A stretch of DNA of 64,000 bases from positions 26,924-90,923 of the forward strand of contig JAISIR010000003.1 in assembly GCA_031261985.1 (NCBI GenBank), in the 5' to 3' direction. Both the position numbers and the translations under genes were made by a program. Below the pieces are notes generated by a model. It was not told the DNA's origin, did not search any database, and saw only the letters and a program-made list of their open reading frames with translations. This stretch comes from Clostridiales bacterium. GTDB lineage: Bacteria; Bacillota; Clostridia; Monoglobales; WRBX01. The stretch's first letter is position 1, and each line of letters starts with the position of its first letter. Positions 30,518 through 41,662 of the stretch are shown piece after piece.

Positions 30518-31213
30518 TTATCGCAATTTATTTATAAATTTTAACACATTTTGTTTTGCTGAGTTTTCAAAATTATCGACAATTCTCTCATTTTGTCTTT
30601 GAGCACTTGATTTAAATATTTTTTTCCTAGATGAGTTTTGTAACCGTTCTTTGGTGCGTTGTGCCATTTCCATTTCCTCTTTAGCTGCTGATATAAATTC
30701 TTCTGGGTTTTGCAAATAGTTTCTGCACTCTTTGATAAAAGCAACTTTCTCTTTTACTCTAACCACGTCATAAGAATCATGAGCTAAGCGAAAGTCATCA
30801 AATATTTTTGCAATTTCGTTTAGAATAGATACAGTCTTGTCGTTCGTTTCAGCATTCTTAACGAATCCTAACACTTTTTGTTTCTCAGAGTTTTCAAAAT
30901 TATTGACAATTCTCTCGTTTTGTCTTTGAGCACTTGATTTAAATATTTTTTTCCTAGATGAGTTTTCTAACCGTTCTTTGGTGCGTTGTGCCATTTCCAT
31001 TTCTTCTTTAGCTTTTGATATAAATTCTTCTGGGTTTTGCAAATATTCGCTACATTCTTTGACAAAATCAAGTATCCCATTTACATCATCGGCGCGATAA
31101 TAATCACTTCCTGCTATCATCATATTACCACAATATGTATAATCACACGTTGGATTGAGGCCATTAAATCTTTGTATTATTTCATTTAGAATAAATACAG
31201 CCTTATCGTCCAT
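30518..31213 (-). CDS. Protein with an internal ~107-aa tandem duplication, unknown function
   Basis: Start moved to the ATG at 31213, because the ORF-track N-terminus runs through the TTGACT-17-TATAAT promoter. Two near-identical units 'YLQNPEEFISxAKEEMEMAQRTKERLxNSSRKKIFKSSAQRQNERIV'. Confidence 0.55.
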   Translation of the reverse strand: MDDKAVFILNEIIQRFNGLNPTCDYTYCGNMMIAGSDYYRADDVNGILDFVKECSEYLQNPEEFISKAKEEMEMAQRTKERLENSSRKKIFKSSAQRQNERIVNNFENSEKQKVLGFVKNAETNDKTVSILNEIAKIFDDFRLAHDSYDVVRVKEKVAFIKECRNYLQNPEEFISAAKEEMEMAQRTKERLQNSSRKKIFKSSAQRQNERIVDNFENSAKQNVLKFINKLR

Positions 31214-31593
31214 TAGTATCATCCCCTTACTTATATTATAACAGATTTTCGCGTAAAAGTCAAGCAAAAAGATATGAATTATGTTAAATTTGTGTAAAGG
31301 TATTAAGGTAAAAAGTGCACCCCCGGTTCAAATCTGTTTTTAGGCTCTAAGTAACCCCCTAAACACTACAAATAAAAAAATGAAGAATGATAAGTGATGA
31401 ACGATAAATGTTGAATACAAAAAGTGCACTATAGCATGCCTTTCATTCATCATTTACAATTGATCATTTTTCATTGCCAAGCTTGCTTGGCACTTTTTGT
31501 TTGGTTTGGACAAAAAAGATACCCAAGAAGGTTTATAAGCAACTTTCAAAGTTTTATCAATTTTTTAATTCTTTTTTGTAGCTTGTTGGCAAT

Positions 31594-31877: not shown

Positions 31878-31923
31878 TCACCTCTTACATAATTATATAT
31901 ATTTCGTCATACAAAGTCAATAC
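31878..31923 (-). promoter_or_regulatory. Conserved island promoter+RBS module, copy 1
   Basis: Minus strand reads TTGACTTTGTATGACGAAATATATATAATTATGTAAGAGGTGA (-35, 17 nt, -10, RBS). Confidence 0.75.
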
Positions 31924-32203
31924 TCAAAATGCCCCCCGTTCAAATCTGTTTTTAGGGGTGGAGAGGAACAGTGAAGTATTTTGGTTGCACCAAAAAGTGA
32001 AGCAGTTGGCTTTCAGCCAACAGTGAAGTATAGCGTGAACGCTAAATGAAGTAAAGTTTGCATAAAAATTACGAAGCAACTTCATTCGCCGATAGGCGAA
32101 CTTCACTTCGCAAGATACTTCACTTGCCCGACAGGGCAAACTTAGTTGCAATTTGCTATGCAAATTGCATGTCCCATTTGGACAAAAAAGATACCCGAGA
32201 GAT

Positions 32204-32329: not shown

Positions 32330-32496
32330 CACCCTTCCAAAATTATATTTAAATCGGTTTGTGAAGAAATTATAAATTTTCGTGTTTTATAATATAGCGT
32401 TCTGTTGACTTTTACATTATTATGTGCTAAAATAATAAAAAGATGTTGTCGTCATAATCGAATATTATTAAAAGTTTGATGAAGTGGAGGGCTATT

Positions 32497-33042
32497 GTGG
32501 CTAAAAGAGAGGCTATTAAAACAACACTTAATTCAATTGTGGAATATTGGGGCTCGAGGGTTGATGAATGTGATCTTAGTGTTGACTGGGCAGAAGCGGA
32601 CAGCCATTGTTGGAGGTGTGGGTGCGAAAAAAATTTAGAACGGTGTCATATAATCCCGCATTCATTACAGGGAAAGGATGAGCCTTCTAATTATGTGTTA
32701 CTATGCAAAAGATGTCATTTGGAAAATCCTAATGTCGCCGATAAGGAAATTATGTGGGATTGGCTAAAAGCATATAAAACATCTTTTTATGAAACTTTTT
32801 GGCTAATTCAAGGTTTAGAAGAATACAAACGCATATATGGAAAAAGCGTTGTTGAGGAACTCAAAAAGCTAGGAATTAAAGATAGAAATAAAGTTTTAAG
32901 CTCGTTCAAAGCTACCCATAATATGGCAAGCTTTCATTTCGGGCAACCATATTTCAACTCAGCAACTGTTGCAGGATTATTGAGGATGATGATAAAGGAA
33001 TTGGAAGCGGAAACGGAAACTATTGAGAAATGCAACGCATAA
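32497..33042 (+). CDS. Free-standing HNH endonuclease
   Basis: GTG start 6 nt after GGAGG. 'CWRCGCEKNLERCHIIPHSLQGKDEPSNYVLLCKRCH' is an HNH motif. Confidence 0.7.
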   Translation: MAKREAIKTTLNSIVEYWGSRVDECDLSVDWAEADSHCWRCGCEKNLERCHIIPHSLQGKDEPSNYVLLCKRCHLENPNVADKEIMWDWLKAYKTSFYETFWLIQGLEEYKRIYGKSVVEELKKLGIKDRNKVLSSFKATHNMASFHFGQPYFNSATVAGLLRMMIKELEAETETIEKCNA

Positions 33043-33097: not shown

Positions 33098-33910
33098 TTA
33101 TTGTTGAATAGCTTTAGTCAAGCCATGCATCCCAGCTTCAAAATCTTCTCTAAAATCAATATACTTTTTATTCTTTAATAAATGTGGGATTTCACAATCT
33201 TTTAGCAAAATAGGTATAACCTTGATTCTGTTTTCACCTATTTCACGCCAAAACATAGACTGCCATTCCGTTTTAACCCAGTTAGATTCAATAGAATTCG
33301 GAGATAGGATAACCAATATATAGTCGCTGGCATCAAGAGCTTTTGATATTTCATCGGGTATAGATTGCCCGCCACATATCTCACTATCTATCCAAGGGTC
33401 ATGCCCATCTTCTGCCAATTGAACAAATAAACTTTCTGCAAATGGCTTATCTTTTGTTGCGTGAGAGATGAAAATTTTCAAGCCTTTTTTATTGCCAAAC
33501 CTAGTTTTAACATGTCGCTCATACATTAAAGCTATAGTAAGATTAAGTTCCAATAATAAGTCTTCTTTTTGTTGCATTAATTCCTTTTCATCGCCCTCGC
33601 CAGACATAATTTTTTCGGTAATCCCCCAAATTTCATATTCTATAGATTTCATTCTATTTGAGCAAGCAGACATAGGAATAGTGTTTGTTATATTACCTTT
33701 TGGTACATAAGCAAATGTATTGCAATGCAATATATTTCCCCAATAGATAATCGCATATTGATTATGCAACATTTCACAATCTTCATCAATGCCATCTGTA
33801 CATAATTCACAAATGTCACATTCGCAAGCATCATCGTCAAAAATTCCAATTCTCCCTTTATACTCTCCTTTTATACATAAAACTGGACCATAGCTTAATT
33901 CAGAATGCAT
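33098..33910 (-). CDS. TIR-domain protein with a Cys/Asp-rich N-terminal domain
   Basis: C-terminal 'LKIFISHATKDKPFAESL...DPWIDSEICGGQSI...YILVILSPNSIESNWVKTEW' is TIR-like. The N-terminal ~130 aa contains 'DDDACECDICELCTDGIDEDCE'. Confidence 0.75.
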   Translation of the reverse strand: MHSELSYGPVLCIKGEYKGRIGIFDDDACECDICELCTDGIDEDCEMLHNQYAIIYWGNILHCNTFAYVPKGNITNTIPMSACSNRMKSIEYEIWGITEKIMSGEGDEKELMQQKEDLLLELNLTIALMYERHVKTRFGNKKGLKIFISHATKDKPFAESLFVQLAEDGHDPWIDSEICGGQSIPDEISKALDASDYILVILSPNSIESNWVKTEWQSMFWREIGENRIKVIPILLKDCEIPHLLKNKKYIDFREDFEAGMHGLTKAIQQ

Positions 33911-33948: not shown

Positions 33949-34857
33949 TTAAACACATATTTTCGCACCTTTTTTTCTATTACATCTCCAACACAAACAT
34001 TGAAGGTTTTCCTCTACAGATAAACCACCTTTAGAAATTGGAATTATGTGGTCTATTTCTAGAAGTAGTGTGGGTTCATCTTTTATAGAAACATTACATA
34101 ACTTGCAAGCATAGTTATCTCTTTTTTTAATTTTTTCTCTTAATTGTGGAGTCATTATAACTCTTTGGTATTGAGCAGATTTTTTATATTTGATACTGTC
34201 GTCTAGCCAATGCATAAAACCCTCTAAATTATTGGGGTTGAGCTTTAAAGTGTAAGACAATCCACTATTGCCACCTGAACTTGTATAAGAGAAAACATAT
34301 TGCGGATAAATAACTGAAACTAAATCTAATTCAGTTAATCCTAACTTTTTATAAAGAGATTTTTTCAAAATTTTAATCAAAAATGGTAAATTGTTTTTAA
34401 TCTTATCAAATAAATTATTACGTTTTGTCCTAAGTAGTTCTCTCGATTCTTCATAAGAATTAAAATTATTCAGCATGTCGTTTGCATAATTACGATGCGT
34501 TTCATCTATAGGTATATTAAAATACTTACAAATATACTTATAGCCATTTAGCTGAGCATTACTAACAACAGAACGAGAACAATGATATATGTATTGTTTG
34601 TTTTCTCTACTAAAAAGCCCAGAATGTTTATAACCCCATCGGCTTTCATTTGAGATTTCTCCAACAAAAGTTTGCTTAGTTTGGCCTCCTAAAAGATTTA
34701 TGCTTAAAAAATCGGCATACTCATTCAGCTCGTTAAAATCGTTAGTTAAATCCTCTACACTTTTCTTTATGGAAGCAAATTCATCAGAATTAAAATAAAC
34801 ATTTCTATAAATGATAATACCTATCCAAACTATAAAAATTATTGCTAAAGGATTCAT
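33949..34857 (-). CDS. Membrane-anchored HNH nuclease
   Basis: N-terminal TM 'LAIIFIVWIGIIIY' and C-terminal 'CKLCNVS...LEIDHIIPISKGGLSVEENLQCLCWRCNRKKG'. Confidence 0.7.
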   Translation of the reverse strand: MNPLAIIFIVWIGIIIYRNVYFNSDEFASIKKSVEDLTNDFNELNEYADFLSINLLGGQTKQTFVGEISNESRWGYKHSGLFSRENKQYIYHCSRSVVSNAQLNGYKYICKYFNIPIDETHRNYANDMLNNFNSYEESRELLRTKRNNLFDKIKNNLPFLIKILKKSLYKKLGLTELDLVSVIYPQYVFSYTSSGGNSGLSYTLKLNPNNLEGFMHWLDDSIKYKKSAQYQRVIMTPQLREKIKKRDNYACKLCNVSIKDEPTLLLEIDHIIPISKGGLSVEENLQCLCWRCNRKKGAKICV

Positions 34858-35526: not shown

Positions 35527-35570
35527 CACCTCTTCCATAATTATACATTATTCGCACTTTGATGTCAAGC
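35527..35570 (-). promoter_or_regulatory. Conserved island promoter+RBS module, copy 2 (more diverged)
   Basis: Minus strand reads TTGACATCAAAGTGCGAATAATGTATAATTATGGAAGAGGTGG. Confidence 0.7.
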
Positions 35571-35834
35571 CTCAGCTAAAATCCGCATTCAGCCTATAAC
35601 CAACTCTTAAACGCTATTTTTAAACTGCATCTTAAAAAACAAAAAAACCTGCGAGGCAGGCGTTAGAAATATATTTTTAATGGATAATGAAAAGTGGGGA
35701 AATATTAAAAACGTCGTTTAATAATTCGAAACAGCGTATTATCGCAGTTTTTGCTAAATAATCTTCCCTGTTTTCTTCTAAGGATGGCTTTATCTCACTT
35801 GGTAAAAGATATGAGAAATTTATACTTTCCCCAA

Positions 35835-36836
35835 CTAATATGGATTTTCAAGATCTAATCCATAATGATTTCCAATGCATCTATAGATACCTTCAACGGC
35901 ATTGCAAATATCTGATATATAGCTTGATATAATTTCATCTGTTATATCGATATTAATTTCAGCAGCGTGGACTATCGCATTTCTAATAGTAATTATATCA
36001 TCAATACTATCTAATAATGTATCGGAACGGGCAGGAATGGGTTTTGAAAATACAGCGTTTATATCAAGATTTTCGTTCACCATTTTATAATTGTCTATAA
36101 TAGATTTAGGTCTTTGAAAACTTAACCATTCGCTCAAAACCCATTCTACTTTTTCATTATCTTGCGAAAATGTTTCTATGTGTTGTGGAAGAATTTTTAT
36201 TTTATTTATTACTTTTTTAAATGCTTTTTTCCTGTCATCCGCAAATTTCAAAAGTACAACGAAAGTGGATTTAAGATATTTTTCCCAAGCACCAACAATA
36301 TAAGGTATAAGTAGATTGTTAAATATGGTATTTGCATTAAATTCCATAAGCCAAGGAATATTTGTATTATTACCTTCTATTCTAGTCTGATATTCGAGCA
36401 AAGCCACCTTTTTAATATTATTATCGAAAATCCACTTTTGATAGTACAACCCAACTTCTATTTCAGATTTCTCTGGTAATTCTACTCCGAGCTTAAGGTC
36501 GTCCCAATCATCTTCTTCAAATTCACCACCAAAAAAATTGCTTAAAGCTATTACGGTTTCGTGTTGATGCTTATGCTCCCAATAACTACGCCCAATACGC
36601 GTTCGCGTACAAACCGATATAACTCCATTTTCCTCGTAAAGAGTCAATTCAAGTCCAACAAGTGATTGGAATTCTTTTGCTCCAACCCACACATAACTCC
36701 CTTTGCGTTGCGGAATTTCTTCCTTAGGCACGATTTCAAAGCCATCGTATATCTCATAGTCAAGCCATTTAATAACATCTTTTACTCTTTCAATGTTTGT
36801 TCCAATAGGAAAGGTATTAGTGGTTTCATAACTCAT
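35835..36836 (-). CDS. HEPN-motif protein (ApeA/Abi-like), island cassette C
   Basis: Start moved to ATG 36836; the ORF-track N-terminus crosses the promoter module and spacer repeats. C-terminal 'IITIRNAIVHAAE' contains an Rx4H motif. Confidence 0.55.
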   Translation of the reverse strand: MSYETTNTFPIGTNIERVKDVIKWLDYEIYDGFEIVPKEEIPQRKGSYVWVGAKEFQSLVGLELTLYEENGVISVCTRTRIGRSYWEHKHQHETVIALSNFFGGEFEEDDWDDLKLGVELPEKSEIEVGLYYQKWIFDNNIKKVALLEYQTRIEGNNTNIPWLMEFNANTIFNNLLIPYIVGAWEKYLKSTFVVLLKFADDRKKAFKKVINKIKILPQHIETFSQDNEKVEWVLSEWLSFQRPKSIIDNYKMVNENLDINAVFSKPIPARSDTLLDSIDDIITIRNAIVHAAEINIDITDEIISSYISDICNAVEGIYRCIGNHYGLDLENPY

Positions 36837-36841
36837 GCTTT

Positions 36842-36887
36842 TCACCTCTTTCATAATTATATATAATTCGTCATGCGAAGTCAATAC
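36842..36887 (-). promoter_or_regulatory. Conserved island promoter+RBS module, copy 3
   Basis: Minus strand reads TTGACTTCGCATGACGAATTATATATAATTATGAAAGAGGTGA. Confidence 0.75.
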
Positions 36888-37006
36888 AAAAAAATGCGCC
36901 CCCAGTTTAAATCTGTTTTTTGGGGGTGGGCAACCCCCTAAAGCGCCCTTGCAAAAATTTGCACTTAGAAATGCGAAAAACGCCCATAAATACAGGCGTT
37001 TTTGGC

Positions 37007-37058
37007 TGGGTATCTTTTTTGTCCAAACAACTTGTCCTGTTTGGACAAAAAAGATACC
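37007..37058. terminator. Perfect 21-bp-stem palindrome between cassettes (bidirectional terminator/insulator candidate)
   Basis: GGGTATCTTTTTTGTCCAAAC, 10 nt, GTTTGGACAAAAAAGATACCC. Half copies at 31511-31531 and 32175-32197. Confidence 0.7.
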
Positions 37059-37065
37059 CGAGAGA

Positions 37066-38616
37066 TTAAGACTCTTCGTCATCGTCAACTTCATCGAAAA
37101 TGATATTAGAATTCCCTATTAAATAATCGACGCCTTCTAATCTTTCTTTCCATTTTTGTTTATTTTCTTCGCATAATTCATCATATAACACATCGACAGC
37201 ATCAGATAAATACTCACATCCATTTTTATTATCAAATATTTCGCTTATATAAGTCCCAATATTCGCACGGTCAAAATCTAATTCTTGAAAAACATTTAAA
37301 AATTCATGTTCAGGGTGTTTTTGCCCATATTTTAACAGCCAAAAGATAAGTTCTTTTTTCGATTGTTTTATTTGTAAAAATATATTATATAGTTTTTTGG
37401 ATTTTTCGCCTCTAAATACAAGACAAGCTGTTGATTCGCTTTCTAATTCGTATGCGTAAATATTAAGTTCTGAACACAAACTATACACTAGATTATAATA
37501 CGAAAAAGCTATTTTGCCCAAAGCAGTACCAAAAGCTTTTTTAATATTCTCAGAATATTCTTCTTTATTCCCACCACCTATTTTTTCTAATAATTTAAGT
37601 TCTTTGTTTATATCATCCTGTGTGCTAAATCTGGAATATCGTGCGTCATTATAGAATTGCAGCAATACGTCAAACAGGATGTTTTCATTATCCTTAAAAT
37701 CATTTTCTGCTATTTTATTTATATAATCACGAAGTCCTGTGTGATTGTGACTCATAAGCAGTCTTCTTATTCGATCTTGCTCGCTTCTTAAATCTTTGTT
37801 TTTATAATACATTAGCTCAATTATTATTTTTTGTAATCTTTCTACTCCTTGAGCTGCGAAATACAAAGCCAAAAATGGATACTCGCATAGGTATTCTTTG
37901 TTTTGAAACAAACTTTTATCATCGGGATGGAAAAATTTAATTTTACTTATCTCTTCTATTGATTTCCAAATCATTGCTCCAGAAATTTGCAACTCCTTTC
38001 TTAAAGCAAAATTCATTTCCGATAGATCTCTATCTAAATCAACTTCTATTTTTTCATCAAAATGTTCATTTTCTTCATGAGTGTAACTACCAATACTAAT
38101 TGCATAACTTAATTTTTTTGTTGCTTCTTCAAAAACAAAATTTTCTTCTTCACCGTCGCATTCATTGTGGAAAGCTGTTATTAAGTTTTCTTTTACAGAA
38201 CAAAGAGGTATCAAATTCTTCCAAAACTGTTTCCTTTCATCTTTAGACAACATATCAACCCTTGCCATTCCTTTGTAAGCAACTAGTTTTTTATTCAAAA
38301 TGTCGTCAATTACTTTCGCTGCTTTTTCTGAAATATTTTGCAACACCCAGCAAAAAGGCCAGCCTTTTAATCCGCCCCAAGATATCGGTTGAAAATCAAT
38401 GGTGCATAAATCGTCTTTAATGAGAAATGGCGATAAGTCTCCAAATACACGCCTATCAAGAATATCACCTGCTCTTATAACTATTTCATCTGAACAATTT
38501 TTCAATTCTTCAACACTCATAATTACTTCAAAAACTTCTTCGCCATACCAACCAGTGTTGAATTTTCCACTATCAAAAATAAAAGCAATATTAAGTTGTT
38601 CATTTATATTTCCCAT
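37066..38616 (-). CDS. Large Abi-like protein with a candidate Rx4H HEPN motif, island cassette D
   Basis: ATG at 38616 after GGAAGAGGTG. Central 'RIRRLLMSHNHTG' contains RLLMSH. Otherwise unrecognised. Confidence 0.45.
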   Translation of the reverse strand: MGNINEQLNIAFIFDSGKFNTGWYGEEVFEVIMSVEELKNCSDEIVIRAGDILDRRVFGDLSPFLIKDDLCTIDFQPISWGGLKGWPFCWVLQNISEKAAKVIDDILNKKLVAYKGMARVDMLSKDERKQFWKNLIPLCSVKENLITAFHNECDGEEENFVFEEATKKLSYAISIGSYTHEENEHFDEKIEVDLDRDLSEMNFALRKELQISGAMIWKSIEEISKIKFFHPDDKSLFQNKEYLCEYPFLALYFAAQGVERLQKIIIELMYYKNKDLRSEQDRIRRLLMSHNHTGLRDYINKIAENDFKDNENILFDVLLQFYNDARYSRFSTQDDINKELKLLEKIGGGNKEEYSENIKKAFGTALGKIAFSYYNLVYSLCSELNIYAYELESESTACLVFRGEKSKKLYNIFLQIKQSKKELIFWLLKYGQKHPEHEFLNVFQELDFDRANIGTYISEIFDNKNGCEYLSDAVDVLYDELCEENKQKWKERLEGVDYLIGNSNIIFDEVDDDEES

Positions 38617-38622
38617 TGATTT

Positions 38623-38668
38623 TCACCTCTTCCATAATTATATATAATTCGTCATACAAAGTCAATAC
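38623..38668 (-). promoter_or_regulatory. Conserved island promoter+RBS module, copy 4
   Basis: Minus strand reads TTGACTTTGTATGACGAATTATATATAATTATGGAAGAGGTGA. Confidence 0.75.
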
Positions 38669-39872
38669 AAATTATCGTGATTTTGGTATAATACACCGCA
38701 TTTTATCCCAAGCTTTCATTATGAGTAAATACACTAACGAACAAAAAGAAAAAGCGTTGGAACTTTATGCTTCTGGGGTAAGTGTTGCGAGCGTTGTTAA
38801 GGAATGCAAAATCCCGCGAAGCACGGTGTATGGGTGGATTTCAGCCGAAAATCTAAACGGCAATGACGAGCTTGCGTTCACTCCGAAAAACTTTCGCATG
38901 CTTAAAACAAAGGCGGACAAGTTGGAGCAGATTGTCGCTGTGCTTAAATCGTCTGATTGCACCCTTAACGCTCCATTACACGAAAAACTTAAAGTTATCA
39001 AAAAGCTGTATGGGCAATATAGTGTGCATATTTTATGCGAGGCGTTCTCAGTTAGCCGTGGGACTTTCTATAATTATCTACTACGCAACAAAAACGAAAA
39101 CACCACTTATGCAAAGCGGCGTGAGGTTTTTAGCAAACTCGTTAAAGATGTTCACGATGAGTTTAATCAGATTTTGGGTGCAAAGAAAATCACGGCGGTA
39201 CTAAATGAGCTAGGGCACAGGACGACTGAGAAATATGTGCGAAGCATTATGCAGGATATGGGGCTTGCGAGCATTCGGCAGGGGGCAAAAGCATTTTACC
39301 ACAAGGAACAATCAAAGGCAAAAAATCATCTAAATCAAAATTTCAAGGTGGACACCCCTAACGAGGTTTGGGTTAGCGATGTTAGTTTCTTCCATTTGCA
39401 CAAGCACACATATTACATTTGCGTGATTATCGACCTTTTCGCTCGAAAAGTTGTGAGTCATAAAGTGTCGCACAAAAACAGCACACAACTTACAAAATCA
39501 ACTTTTAAGCAAGCGTATTTAACACGAAAGCCCAAAGATGGTTTGATTTTCCATACCGATCAAGGCTCAAATTATCGCTCATTCACTTTTATGAGCTATC
39601 TAAAAGAGTTAGGCGTTACGCAATCGTTTTCGAGGGCTCATATTCCTTACGATAATTCTGTTGCGGAGGCGTTCTTTTCGTCTTTGAAGCAAGAAGATCT
39701 TTATCGCCATAAGTTCAAAACCGAAAAAGATTTCCGCAAAGCCGTCGATGAATATATTGTTTTTTATAACACCAAACGCCCACATACTTATAACAAGAAT
39801 AAAACGCCTGTTAAGGTGGAGGATGAGTTTTATAGCAATAATGAGAAGAATTCACAATAACAATATAGATGT
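38669..39872 (+). mobile_element. IS3-family insertion sequence (ends approximate)
   Basis: Contains the transposase ORF and fills exactly the gap between the copy-4 module and the stop of gene 39873-41279. Terminal inverted repeats are only weakly visible. Confidence 0.55.
38721..39860 (+). CDS. IS3-family transposase (HTH + DDE/rve), single uninterrupted ORF
   Basis: HTH region 'IPRSTVYGWI'. rve core 'VWVSDVSFF...YICVIIDLFARKVV...HTDQGSNYRS...YDNSVAEAFFSSLKQE'. Start set at ATG 38721. Confidence 0.8.
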   Translation: MSKYTNEQKEKALELYASGVSVASVVKECKIPRSTVYGWISAENLNGNDELAFTPKNFRMLKTKADKLEQIVAVLKSSDCTLNAPLHEKLKVIKKLYGQYSVHILCEAFSVSRGTFYNYLLRNKNENTTYAKRREVFSKLVKDVHDEFNQILGAKKITAVLNELGHRTTEKYVRSIMQDMGLASIRQGAKAFYHKEQSKAKNHLNQNFKVDTPNEVWVSDVSFFHLHKHTYYICVIIDLFARKVVSHKVSHKNSTQLTKSTFKQAYLTRKPKDGLIFHTDQGSNYRSFTFMSYLKELGVTQSFSRAHIPYDNSVAEAFFSSLKQEDLYRHKFKTEKDFRKAVDEYIVFYNTKRPHTYNKNKTPVKVEDEFYSNNEKNSQ

Positions 39873-41279
39873 CTATTTAGGTTTTTTCTTACTGTCTTTA
39901 TTGGTTTTGAATCTATTTTTATAATTAAAATAGAACATAAGTAATTCTTCTGGTGGCAGCTCGTTAATTTGTAAGGTTCTAGCGAAACTTCTCATTTGCC
40001 GCAGTAAAGCTTGTTCCGAAGGCGGAGAGTTTCTGTATTCTTCTTTTGAAAGTTCGTATTCCATTGCTTCATAAATACATTTTGCAGTAACAGGCGGAAC
40101 CCCCTGACTTTGCTTTAATGCAGTGTTATGCCAATTGCGGCAATACTTTACCCAAACATCATTTACATTTTTTATTTCAACTAAATTGTTAAACTTTTCT
40201 AACATATCAGGCAATTTCATATTTTTAGGATTAGTGCAATAATAAACAACTTTTTCCAAATTGCCGTTTTCTAAACTTTTACAAATGCAATCAAATATGT
40301 GAGAGTCGTTTTGGGGATTCACACCTATTATAAAAAGTGCACCTTCTATATTTTCAAACTCTGAAAAATGGTAATCAGACCAACCTTGCAATTCTGGATG
40401 CTCAATTGCTATATTTGGAGTTAATTGCAAGTAATGTTCGTCTGGAAATATTGTTTTATACAAGTCGACTATTCCTCTTTTGAGATTTTCCTGTTGGGTT
40501 CCAGTGCCACCCTTTAACTTATTATAATAATTATTAGCATTTTGAAAATCTTTAGCAAATGTATATTTTTTATTCCCTGAATAGCTTAATAAGGCATTGC
40601 AAAAACAATGTTCGAAATTTAGTGGTATATAAATCGAAGCCCCATCTTGTCGTCTTGCAAAGCCAGGAATAGTATGAGGATTTTCGCTATCTGGCAAAAC
40701 AGAATAGTCTCCATGCAAGTGATAAACAGGGACTTCCGTAATTTTTTCAATATTATTATCATAATTAAGTGTGAATATTTGTTCAAATTGTTTGAAAAAT
40801 TTCTTAGCTGTCATCATCGTTTTATATGTTTCTTGTAATCTGCCGTCACAATATATCGCATCTAAAATCATGCGTTCAACACCTTGAAGTGTAGCTCGCT
40901 TTTGAGAAATAACATCTGGGTTATCAATATAGAAAAACTCAAAAACTAAAAGCCAATCTTCTATCCCAATTTGGTCTGGCTTAGAAATTGGTTCATTATA
41001 TGTTTTTTTAAACTCAGTTAAAGCACTTTTTAAATTTTTTGGTACTTTTTCATCATATTTACCATTTATCGCATTGTTAATTAGAGGAACAAAGTTGTTA
41101 AATATATTCACTATGCCATCGCCTTCAATAGCCGCCTCTGAAGTTTCGTCTGCTTTGAATAAATCATTATATAAATTTTGCTTAGCTTTTGCAATCATAC
41201 GGATAAAAATCCATTTTGAAAGAAAATCCTTACCACCAAACTCAATATTAATGCCATTGCCTACTAATAAATTCTTCAT
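39873..41279 (-). CDS. AbiH-like / SIR2-like abortive-infection candidate, island cassette E
   Basis: Start at ATG 41279 after GGAAGAGGTG. N-terminal 'LLVGNGINIEFGG' resembles the AbiH 'IIGNGFDLAHG' start, and there is an 'YHLHGDY' motif. Confidence 0.4.
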   Translation of the reverse strand: MKNLLVGNGINIEFGGKDFLSKWIFIRMIAKAKQNLYNDLFKADETSEAAIEGDGIVNIFNNFVPLINNAINGKYDEKVPKNLKSALTEFKKTYNEPISKPDQIGIEDWLLVFEFFYIDNPDVISQKRATLQGVERMILDAIYCDGRLQETYKTMMTAKKFFKQFEQIFTLNYDNNIEKITEVPVYHLHGDYSVLPDSENPHTIPGFARRQDGASIYIPLNFEHCFCNALLSYSGNKKYTFAKDFQNANNYYNKLKGGTGTQQENLKRGIVDLYKTIFPDEHYLQLTPNIAIEHPELQGWSDYHFSEFENIEGALFIIGVNPQNDSHIFDCICKSLENGNLEKVVYYCTNPKNMKLPDMLEKFNNLVEIKNVNDVWVKYCRNWHNTALKQSQGVPPVTAKCIYEAMEYELSKEEYRNSPPSEQALLRQMRSFARTLQINELPPEELLMFYFNYKNRFKTNKDSKKKPK

Positions 41280-41284
41280 TTCAA

Positions 41285-41329
41285 TCACCTCTTCCATAAT
41301 TATATATAATTCGACTTATAAAGTCAATC
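41285..41329 (-). promoter_or_regulatory. Conserved island promoter+RBS module, copy 5
   Basis: Minus strand reads TTGACTTTATAAGTCGAATTATATATAATTATGGAAGAGGTGA. Confidence 0.75.

Positions 41330-41588: not shown

Positions 41589-41662
<74 letters not shown>

Follow-up and report, generated by a model that had tools for sequence, protein, structure and literature searches.

Catalytic HEPN domains are defined by two motifs, Rx4-6H and Ex3[KR] (Anantharaman et al. 2013, PMC3710099). The same survey lists the Ribo L-PSP-HEPN family with Rx4-6H and as a distant relative of AbiD/AbiF. For HEPN-T (AF0298-like) and AbiV, in which the motif His is absent, R is kept and Ex3[KR] often occurs, it proposes that a conserved upstream His could form an alternative active site (PMC3710099). 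A review table assigns HEPN domains of the PF18735 type to the validated systems PD-T4-2, PD-T4-5, PD-T7-3 and ApeA (PMC10952713), and AbiF and AbiV have now been shown to be under type III toxin-antitoxin (TA) control (PMC13064643). Here, we analyzed two adjacent minus-strand genes, gene 1 and gene 2, in a 64,000-nt stretch of a Clostridiales metagenome-assembled genome (contig JAISIR010000003.1, positions 26,924 to 90,923; hereafter the window). A preliminary description had noted an Rx4H motif in both products and suggested that the two may be single-gene abortive-infection (Abi) systems in which a HEPN RNase is joined to a new sensor domain. This suggestion held for gene 1 insofar as it encodes a RiboL-PSP HEPN protein, looks monocistronic and lies in a defense island, and it failed for the R-LLMS-H motif of gene 2. 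We think that the two are probably independent monocistronic cargo genes of a variable defense island, with gene 1 belonging to the RiboL-PSP HEPN proteins and gene 2 to a helical family that has no name.

RiboL-PSP-HEPN (PF18735) forms an Abi-related clade with AbiD/AbiF. The C-terminal domain of gene 1 matches its profile nearly end to end, and shares Rx4H with N after R, as well as Ex3K. The two arrangements after which the family was named (fusion to endoRNase L-PSP, ParB neighbor) are both absent from gene 1, which differs further in an N-terminal region of ~160 amino acids (aa) that has no assignment; the full-length family is rare. ApeA, PD-T4-2, PD-T4-5 and PD-T7-3 follow the same one-polypeptide plan, an N-terminal unknown domain plus a C-terminal HEPN, and also reside in defense islands, but their N-terminal domains are unrelated to those of the two genes studied here.

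With HEPN-T (PF05168; TT1696/1ufb, TM0613/1o3u, AF0298/2hsb) and AbiV, the gene 2 family shares Ex3K in a long helix, and it likewise has an invariant His that opens a later helix, followed by Y-x3-R-Y with no His after the R. HEPN-T and AbiV are ~120-200 aa long, whereas the gene 2 domain comprises ~310 aa; it has an additional helix that separates the Ex3K helix from the His, and it is extended at the C terminus by a large conserved stretch. Gene 2 also lacks an MNT partner and an antitoxin RNA, and no comparison was significant. Gabija (GajA, an OLD-type ATPase/TOPRIM protein, and GajB, UvrD-like) is a third point of reference, as a gene 2 homologue is the third gene after such a pair in two separate mobile elements; no GajA/GajB-like pair occurs in the window, nor at four further loci with long-branch homologues (L005, L006, L017 and L020), and linkage of gene 2 homologues to Gabija-like pairs is tentative.

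Gene models, expression modules and the HEPN domain of gene 1

Both genes are encoded by the minus strand of a 106,855-nt contig. The stretch that holds them is AT-rich (29-35% GC) and is located downstream of a tRNA-Cys gene (41589-41662, minus strand). They are arranged with their expression signals as follows.

38617..38665, minus strand: promoter module of gene 2, TTGACT-17 nt-TATAAT, then GAGGTG, 7 nt, ATG
37066..38616, minus strand: gene 2 coding sequence, 516 aa (LBM38_01045, hypothetical protein)
36885..37065, minus strand: structured spacer of 181 nt, from the gene 2 stop to the gene 1 promoter
36837..36884, minus strand: promoter module of gene 1, TTGACT-17 nt-TATAAT, then GAGGTG, 7 nt, ATG
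35835..36836, minus strand: gene 1 coding sequence, 333 aa (LBM38_01040)
35647..35661, minus strand: terminator-like hairpin with a T-run, 3' of gene 1

The 5' end of gene 1 is over-extended through the promoter both in the open reading frame (ORF) track (419 aa) and in the NCBI model (415 aa, P0075). The correction to 333 aa proposed in the preliminary description is right, as full-length homologues are all ~330 aa long and begin with MS(L/Y)(T/E)S, and GAGGTG is located 7 nt ahead of the ATG at 36836. Each gene does have its own promoter module, as had been described: a 42-nt unit (TTGACT, 17 nt, TATAAT, GAGGTG) occurs in four copies with at most two mismatches, versus 0 expected. When diverged copies are included, an expression module of ~45 nt precedes five or six unrelated island genes, at 41286-41327, 38624-38665, 36843-36884, 35527-35568 and 31879-31920 (all minus strand), with the promoter part alone, without the rest of the module, at 31235-31263 (minus strand). 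Across the copies, GAGGTG is followed by 5-7 nt and ATG, and the six module promoters rank as the best sigma-70-like sites in the region, every one on the minus strand. The module was absent upstream of the homologues at their loci and from public genome and metagenome collections; it is therefore specific to this genome and not a part of either gene family. Near-identical modules ahead of unrelated genes suggest cassette-like assembly or recombination within the island.

The spacer between the genes contains a 23-bp perfect hairpin, a 12-bp hairpin with a U-tract and a CCCCCA...UGGGGG hairpin (minimum free energy of -76.4 kcal/mol, z = -6.6), and insulates gene 1 and gene 2 from one another. 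Because of their own promoter modules, the terminator-like hairpin of gene 1 and the structured spacer after gene 2, both genes look monocistronic; each would be driven by its copy of the island-specific consensus promoter and Shine-Dalgarno (SD) module and closed by its own terminator. That the two proteins are unrelated, as had been stated, is supported by hhalign of alignment A1 against alignment A2, which found nothing. Homology between gene 1 and gene 2, or between their N-terminal domains, was rejected on the same negative comparison. Homologues of either gene occur without the other in other genomes, which supports the independence of the two; at the loci examined, gene 1 homologues were never adjacent to gene 2 family members.

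Gene 1 consists of an N-terminal α/β domain, a long helix and, at the C terminus, a HEPN domain.

36357..36836, minus strand: N-terminal region, residues 1-160, an α/β domain of ~110 aa followed by a long helix (125-153)
35871..36344, minus strand: HEPN domain (Pfam PF18735, HEPN_RiboL-PSP), residues 165-322
36270..36284, minus strand: E185-x3-K189, the second HEPN motif Ex3[KR], invariant in 14 sequences
35967..35984, minus strand: catalytic-type motif R285-N-A-I-V-H290, conserved in 14 sequences

A bare Rx4H is not above chance and is uninformative alone: it arose in 19% of gene 1 shuffles and 25% of gene 2 shuffles, and is present in 12 of the 39 window ORFs of at least 200 aa. As claimed in the preliminary description, gene 1 ends with ...DDIITIRNAIVHAAEINI, which contains R285-NAIV-H290 at nt 35967-35984. 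Here the motif is meaningful, since R285 and H290 are invariant in the alignment of 14 sequences, position 286 is N in 13 of them (H in one), and the motif lies within a Pfam HEPN match. PF18735 matched gene 1 with an E value of 6.6e-11 and 42.9 bits, versus a gathering cut-off of 28.4, with residues 165-322 aligned on profile positions 23-190 of 191, and the same domain was precomputed for 12 of 13 homologues. E185 and K189 are also invariant in the alignment. Gene 1 thus combines a profile match above the gathering score with a conserved Rx4-6H motif that has a polar residue after the R, and with Ex3[KR]. By these sequence features it is a genuine RiboL-PSP-type HEPN protein, carrying an N-terminal domain without assignment, and the earlier claim for gene 1 was correct.

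An AlphaFold2 (AF2) model of gene 1 (pLDDT 84) comprised an α/β domain at 3-108, a long helix at 125-153 and an all-helical C-terminal half (161-324). For the N-terminal domain, Foldseek returned weak ferredoxin/S6-like matches (E 0.06-0.1), and no Pfam, PADLOC, NCBIfam or PHROG model matched the N-terminal region. The C-terminal HEPN domain would be a metal-independent RNase with an Abi role. It may be held inactive by, or activated through, the N-terminal ~160 aa, and upon infection would cut cellular or phage RNA in an Abi-style defense; such RNase activity, and the sensor roles and defense phenotype of either gene, are inferred.

Some points weigh against this picture. Foldseek of the gene 1 AF2 model against PDB found nothing at E < 0.05, the HEPN-bearing matches being only RnlA (E 0.16) and Csm6 (E 0.37), both weak, and the family sequence profile of gene 1 against PDB gave noise alone. 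PADLOC v2 models (ApeA, AbiD/F, PD-T4-x and others) were unmatched by either gene at E up to 1, and gene 1 as a whole matched no PADLOC, NCBIfam or PHROG model. Where no antitoxin is visible, neither as a second gene nor as an upstream repeat RNA, a HEPN toxin needs intramolecular control, which is assumed here.

The full-length gene 1 family is small, comprising 14 clusters at 90% identity, and some homologues are already named "HEPN domain-containing protein". None was found on plasmids or phages; they stand alone beside IS3 transposases or serine recombinases, with no conserved partner gene seen at their loci. Gene 1 adds one further N-terminal "sensor" architecture to the HEPN toxins, which is useful for cataloguing and unsurprising. 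Gene 2 matters more: it illustrates that a bare Rx4H match is not evidence for a HEPN domain, and it points to a large family without a Pfam or defense-database name that recurs among restriction, GmrSD, Gabija-like and Abi genes.

The helical family of gene 2

The domains and motifs of gene 2 are located as follows.

38089..38616, minus strand: N-terminal α/β domain, residues 1-176
37066..38025, minus strand: C-terminal all-helical domain, residues ~198-516 (~310 aa), which elsewhere forms a protein of 300-400 aa on its own
37828..37842, minus strand: E259-R260-x-x-K263, Ex3K motif, invariant in the long and short families
37747..37764, minus strand: R-LLMS-H, R285...H290; R not conserved, H290 invariant and H292 nearly so in the long and short branches
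37636..37641, minus strand: R326-Y327 within FYxxxRYxR[YF], invariant; aligns with ...YIPTRYP... of HEPN-T

In gene 2, QDRIRRLLMSHNH is present as claimed and holds R285-LLMS-H290 at nt 37747-37764, a motif that the preliminary description had read as HEPN-like. In an alignment of 36 sequences (35 homologues), position 285 is mostly D, E, K, N, A, T or Q, and H290 and H292 are invariant within "LLxSHNH". No conserved R with a conserved H at +5 to +7 was found in the family (36 long sequences, 76 short and long sequences). Rx4H is therefore not meaningful in gene 2. R285 is not conserved among the 35 homologues, and there is no significant HEPN profile or fold match; as regards the R, this is the outcome that the preliminary description had itself named as contradicting its claim. 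Residues that are invariant in both the long and the short family are Y252, E259, R260, K263, H290, Y322, R326, Y327 and E422; E208, G257, E390 and a few others are near-invariant.

In the AF2 model of gene 2 (pLDDT 82, pTM 0.73), an α/β domain (8-176) is joined by a disordered linker to an all-helical domain (198-501). Conserved residues of the N-terminal domain are Y24, G25, E37, G50, D51, D60, Y114, G116 and W132, and this domain is confined to the long (~500-550 aa) branch of the family. Gene 2 matched nothing in Pfam, PADLOC, NCBIfam or PHROG, and the sequence profiles of both families against PDB returned noise alone (a TIM-barrel design, cofilin, arenavirus L). The best Foldseek matches were weak S6/ACT-like ferredoxin folds for the N-terminal domain.

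Homologues of gene 2 fall into 74 clusters, mostly full-length at 34-41% identity and ~500-550 aa, all annotated as "hypothetical"; the only Pfam domain in these clusters is an N-terminal Abi_2 on a fusion protein, P0030. With an E value limit of 1e-3, an exhaustive profile search with gene 2 retrieved 471 clusters (50% identity clusters). Within the 150 top-ranked of the 471, the weaker matches are mostly proteins of 300-400 aa that cover only profile positions ~217-520. Since these weaker matches cover the C-terminal part alone, the helical domain, found by itself in most of the 471 clusters, is a stand-alone module, and the gene 2 of the window is a long form, in which an N-terminal domain is added to the helical module. 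The helical-domain family, of at least 471 clusters at 50% identity, ranges over Clostridia, Bacilli including dairy plasmids of Lactococcus, Alphaproteobacteria and Cyanobacteria. The members found are all unnamed and include Rhodovulum and cyanobacterium proteins, as well as proteins on plasmids of the Bacillus cereus group, Lactiplantibacillus and Lactococcus lactis. In a PADLOC scan there was no recurrent match in 76 family members, and PADLOC and PHROG scans of family members and plasmid homologues yielded no consistent match.

On Lactococcus lactis plasmid pAH1-1, WP_209599527.1 (L022 4803-5822) is a 339-aa "hypothetical protein" of the family that has the C-terminal domain only. It matched the gene 2 family with an hhalign probability of 99.7% and no PADLOC Abi model, and is a candidate for an unnamed lactococcal Abi protein.

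Family members recur in the company of defense genes. P0039, on a transposon-like element, and P0037, on an element like an integrative and conjugative element (ICE), are co-oriented third genes, 63-83 nt after a GajA-like (AAA_15/OLD-TOPRIM) and GajB-like (UvrD) pair (L001 5167-9575; L018 4109-8566). The two third genes are 36% identical and the accompanying GajB-like proteins 60% identical; such loci may represent a Gabija variant with three genes or a hotspot of gene swapping. P0048 is positioned between a DpnII restriction-modification (R-M) system with GmrSD_N and an Abi_2 gene. In P0030 (741 aa; L020 4363-7226), an N-terminal Abi_2 (AbiD/F-type HEPN) is fused to a full gene 2-like protein; this gene shares 4 nt with an upstream ORF of 213 aa and adjoins a type IIG R-M gene and an HNH gene. 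Short family members were found after a type I R-M system, in an integrase island with HNH and GmrSD_C, and in a mobile genetic element (MGE) with a methylase, HATPase and a kinase; P0017 is alone amid small ORFs. No partner gene is conserved throughout the family loci. Because there is no constant partner and the neighborhoods are those of defense genes, these contexts support a stand-alone role tied to defense islands.

Whether the helical domain is a non-canonical HEPN was considered with real HEPN-T sequences (1ufb, 1o3u and 1wol), which were retrieved from PDB by use of a made-up consensus bait. The classical HEPN profile PF05168 ("HEPN-T") was the commonest recurrent weak Pfam match, obtained for 11 of 76 members scanned singly (best E 0.002); in two cases inspected the matches covered profile positions 51-99 of 117 and spanned the His and RY motifs. 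Three motif pairs can be set side by side: ...QQAAE-x3-K... of HEPN-T and AAQG(V/I)E-R-x-x-K of the gene 2 family; G-H-S and S-H-N-H at the His that starts a helix; and ...YIPTRYP and FYxxxRYxRY. The ordered pattern of Ex3[KR], upstream His and a basic residue at the motif R is present in gene 2 (E259/K263, H290 and R326), a pattern that is not specific alone. The AF2 helices of gene 2 are at 198-224; at 245-272, which contains Ex3K; at 292-303, which begins at the His; at 309-325, which terminates at RY; and at 351-384. This order fits HEPN-T, apart from an additional helix at 274-288.

Statistically, homology of the gene 2 C-terminal domain to HEPN-T is not supported. We ran hhalign of the family against HEPN-T in local, greedy and global modes, none of which gave a significant result; in hhalign and hmmsearch comparisons with 1ufb, 1o3u and 1wol, P ranged from 0.03 to 0.45. 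Alignment A4 or A1 against the HEPN-T alignment gave E values of 0.45-0.67 with the RY stretch alone aligned, and the greedy local mode also paired the His, not Ex3K, with P 0.33. With hmmsearch of the gene 2 family against HEPN-T sequences, P was 0.03-0.1, which is not significant, and the family consensus scored PF05168 at E 0.46. The recurrent weak PF05168 matches come from homologous sequences and are not independent observations. Foldseek of the gene 2 model against PDB and BFVD gave a best E value of 0.23, with no HEPN entry among the top 50.

A non-canonical HEPN-T/AbiV-like effector is thus our leading hypothesis for the gene 2 C-terminal domain, one that we hold tentatively and do not put forward as a finding. 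The invariant Ex3K, upstream His and R-Y fit the non-canonical site of HEPN-T/AbiV, so that an RNA-targeting effector with an N-terminal sensor, as suggested by the motif pattern and sub-threshold matches, would be the most likely single guess for gene 2. In such a protein, a ~310-aa helical core would act together with the extra N-terminal α/β (ferredoxin/ACT-like) domain, and the latter could bind a ligand or a phage product, as the domain split, conservation and context suggest. A broader proposal is that the helical domain defines a widespread family of single-gene anti-phage effectors with a non-canonical HEPN-like site (Ex3K, upstream His and R-Y), that the version in the window has a ferredoxin/ACT-like sensor, and that in some elements the family supplies the third component of Gabija-like OLD/UvrD pairs; taken as a whole, we regard this as speculative and doubtful. 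If protective, the family would be a new single-gene defense system, of practical interest for starter cultures, and would add another instance of the alternative active site put forward for HEPN in 2013.

Alternative explanations for the two genes

The gene 2 family may be neither an RNase nor a HEPN family, which we judge rather unlikely. Its members would then be metal-binding hydrolases (with H290/H292/E390/E422), scaffolds that sense phage proteins, or other effectors or adaptors, and MGE functions such as exclusion, addiction or anti-restriction may replace abortive infection. This is consistent with the lack of a significant sequence or fold link to known families, and with the invariant acidic E422 and near-invariant E390, plus HxH, which are unusual for HEPN. 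Many members reside on plasmids, ICEs and transposons beside ArdA, relaxase and insertion sequence (IS) elements, and P0030 is already fused to an Abi_2 HEPN, so that a second HEPN would be redundant. However, the order and spacing of Ex3K, upstream His and R-Y and the AF2 helix order parallel those of HEPN-T, PF05168 is the top recurrent weak match, and the neighborhoods are dominated by defense genes.

Gene 1 could alternatively be the toxin of a type II or type III (AbiF/AbiV/ToxIN-like) TA module whose antitoxin was missed. RiboL-PSP-HEPN is distantly akin to AbiD/AbiF (PMC3710099), AbiF and AbiV are type III TA toxins that are neutralized by an upstream RNA (PMC13064643), and the flanks of gene 1 are rich in structured RNA-like elements. 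However, the leader is ~20 nt long, with the promoter abutting the SD and ATG, which leaves an upstream antitoxin RNA no space in the transcript. A type III antitoxin RNA would lie just upstream in the same transcript; at both genes the -10 element is ~20 nt from the ATG, and neither gene has tandem repeats or an Rfam match. No small neighbor gene is conserved across the gene 1 homologue loci L012, L015 and L016, and the upstream structured elements are common to other island junctions and not to gene 1 homologues. Given this promoter position and the lack of tandem repeats and Rfam matches, type III TA control of gene 1 is unlikely, and we consider a TA toxin of either type quite improbable.

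That gene 2 is a canonical HEPN RNase with R285 and H290 as its catalytic dyad can hardly be true and is ruled out by residue conservation: Rx4H is present in the window protein and H290 is invariant, but position 285 varies in most of the 35 homologues and also in the short family, the residue after it is not conserved as polar, Rx4H arises by shuffling as often as stated above, and HEPN profiles and folds gave no significant match.

Island neighbors and junction elements

The region around both genes looks like a defense island, and both genes reside beside known or candidate defense genes as expected of cargo of defense islands or MGEs; in the window, the neighbors concerned are the TIR protein, the two HNH proteins and the PDC-S21-like protein below.

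39873-41297, minus strand: PDC-S21-like protein, 474 aa, with partial matches to the PADLOC candidate PDC-S21
~38721-39860, plus strand: IS3-family transposase (HTH and rve domains), flanked by the PDC-S21-like gene and the promoter module of gene 2
Between gene 1 and the HNH protein (33949-34857): small membrane protein, an island neighbor
33949-34857: HNH protein, an island neighbor
33098-33910, minus strand: TIR protein, 270 aa, PDC-S66-like (TIR_2, E 3e-30), with a Cys-rich N-terminal part
32476-33042: second HNH protein, an island neighbor

The listed start of the IS3 transposase ORF at 38616 is over-extended upstream and runs through the gene 2 promoter module. Comparable IS3 transposases flank gene 1 homologues at L012, L013 and L016.

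Repeated elements were also observed at the junctions between cassettes (37008-37059, 31504-31525, 32177-32196, 36898-36925, 31931-31958 and 31319-31346). A perfect 22-bp palindrome (GGGTATCTTTTTTGTCCAAACA...) is one of them, and half-copies of it lie 5 kb off. A second is a CCCCCA...TGGGGG hairpin with a loop like a tRNA T-arm, which matches the 3' part of tRNA-Cys at 76% in inverted orientation. The repeated junction elements could be terminators or recombination sites. The fragments resembling a tRNA 3' end were considered as att sites and rejected; they are inverted relative to tRNA-Cys and read better as hairpins.

A 252-nt direct repeat of 86% identity (30528-30779 / 30855-31106) lies inside the ORF at 30518-31267, where it duplicates a protein segment. 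Within an island junction, a near-threshold match to the Rfam Gut-1 RNA (RF01706; 32074-32148, minus strand) spans the full length of the model, with 49.5 bits against a gathering score of 50 and an E value of 1.7e-7.

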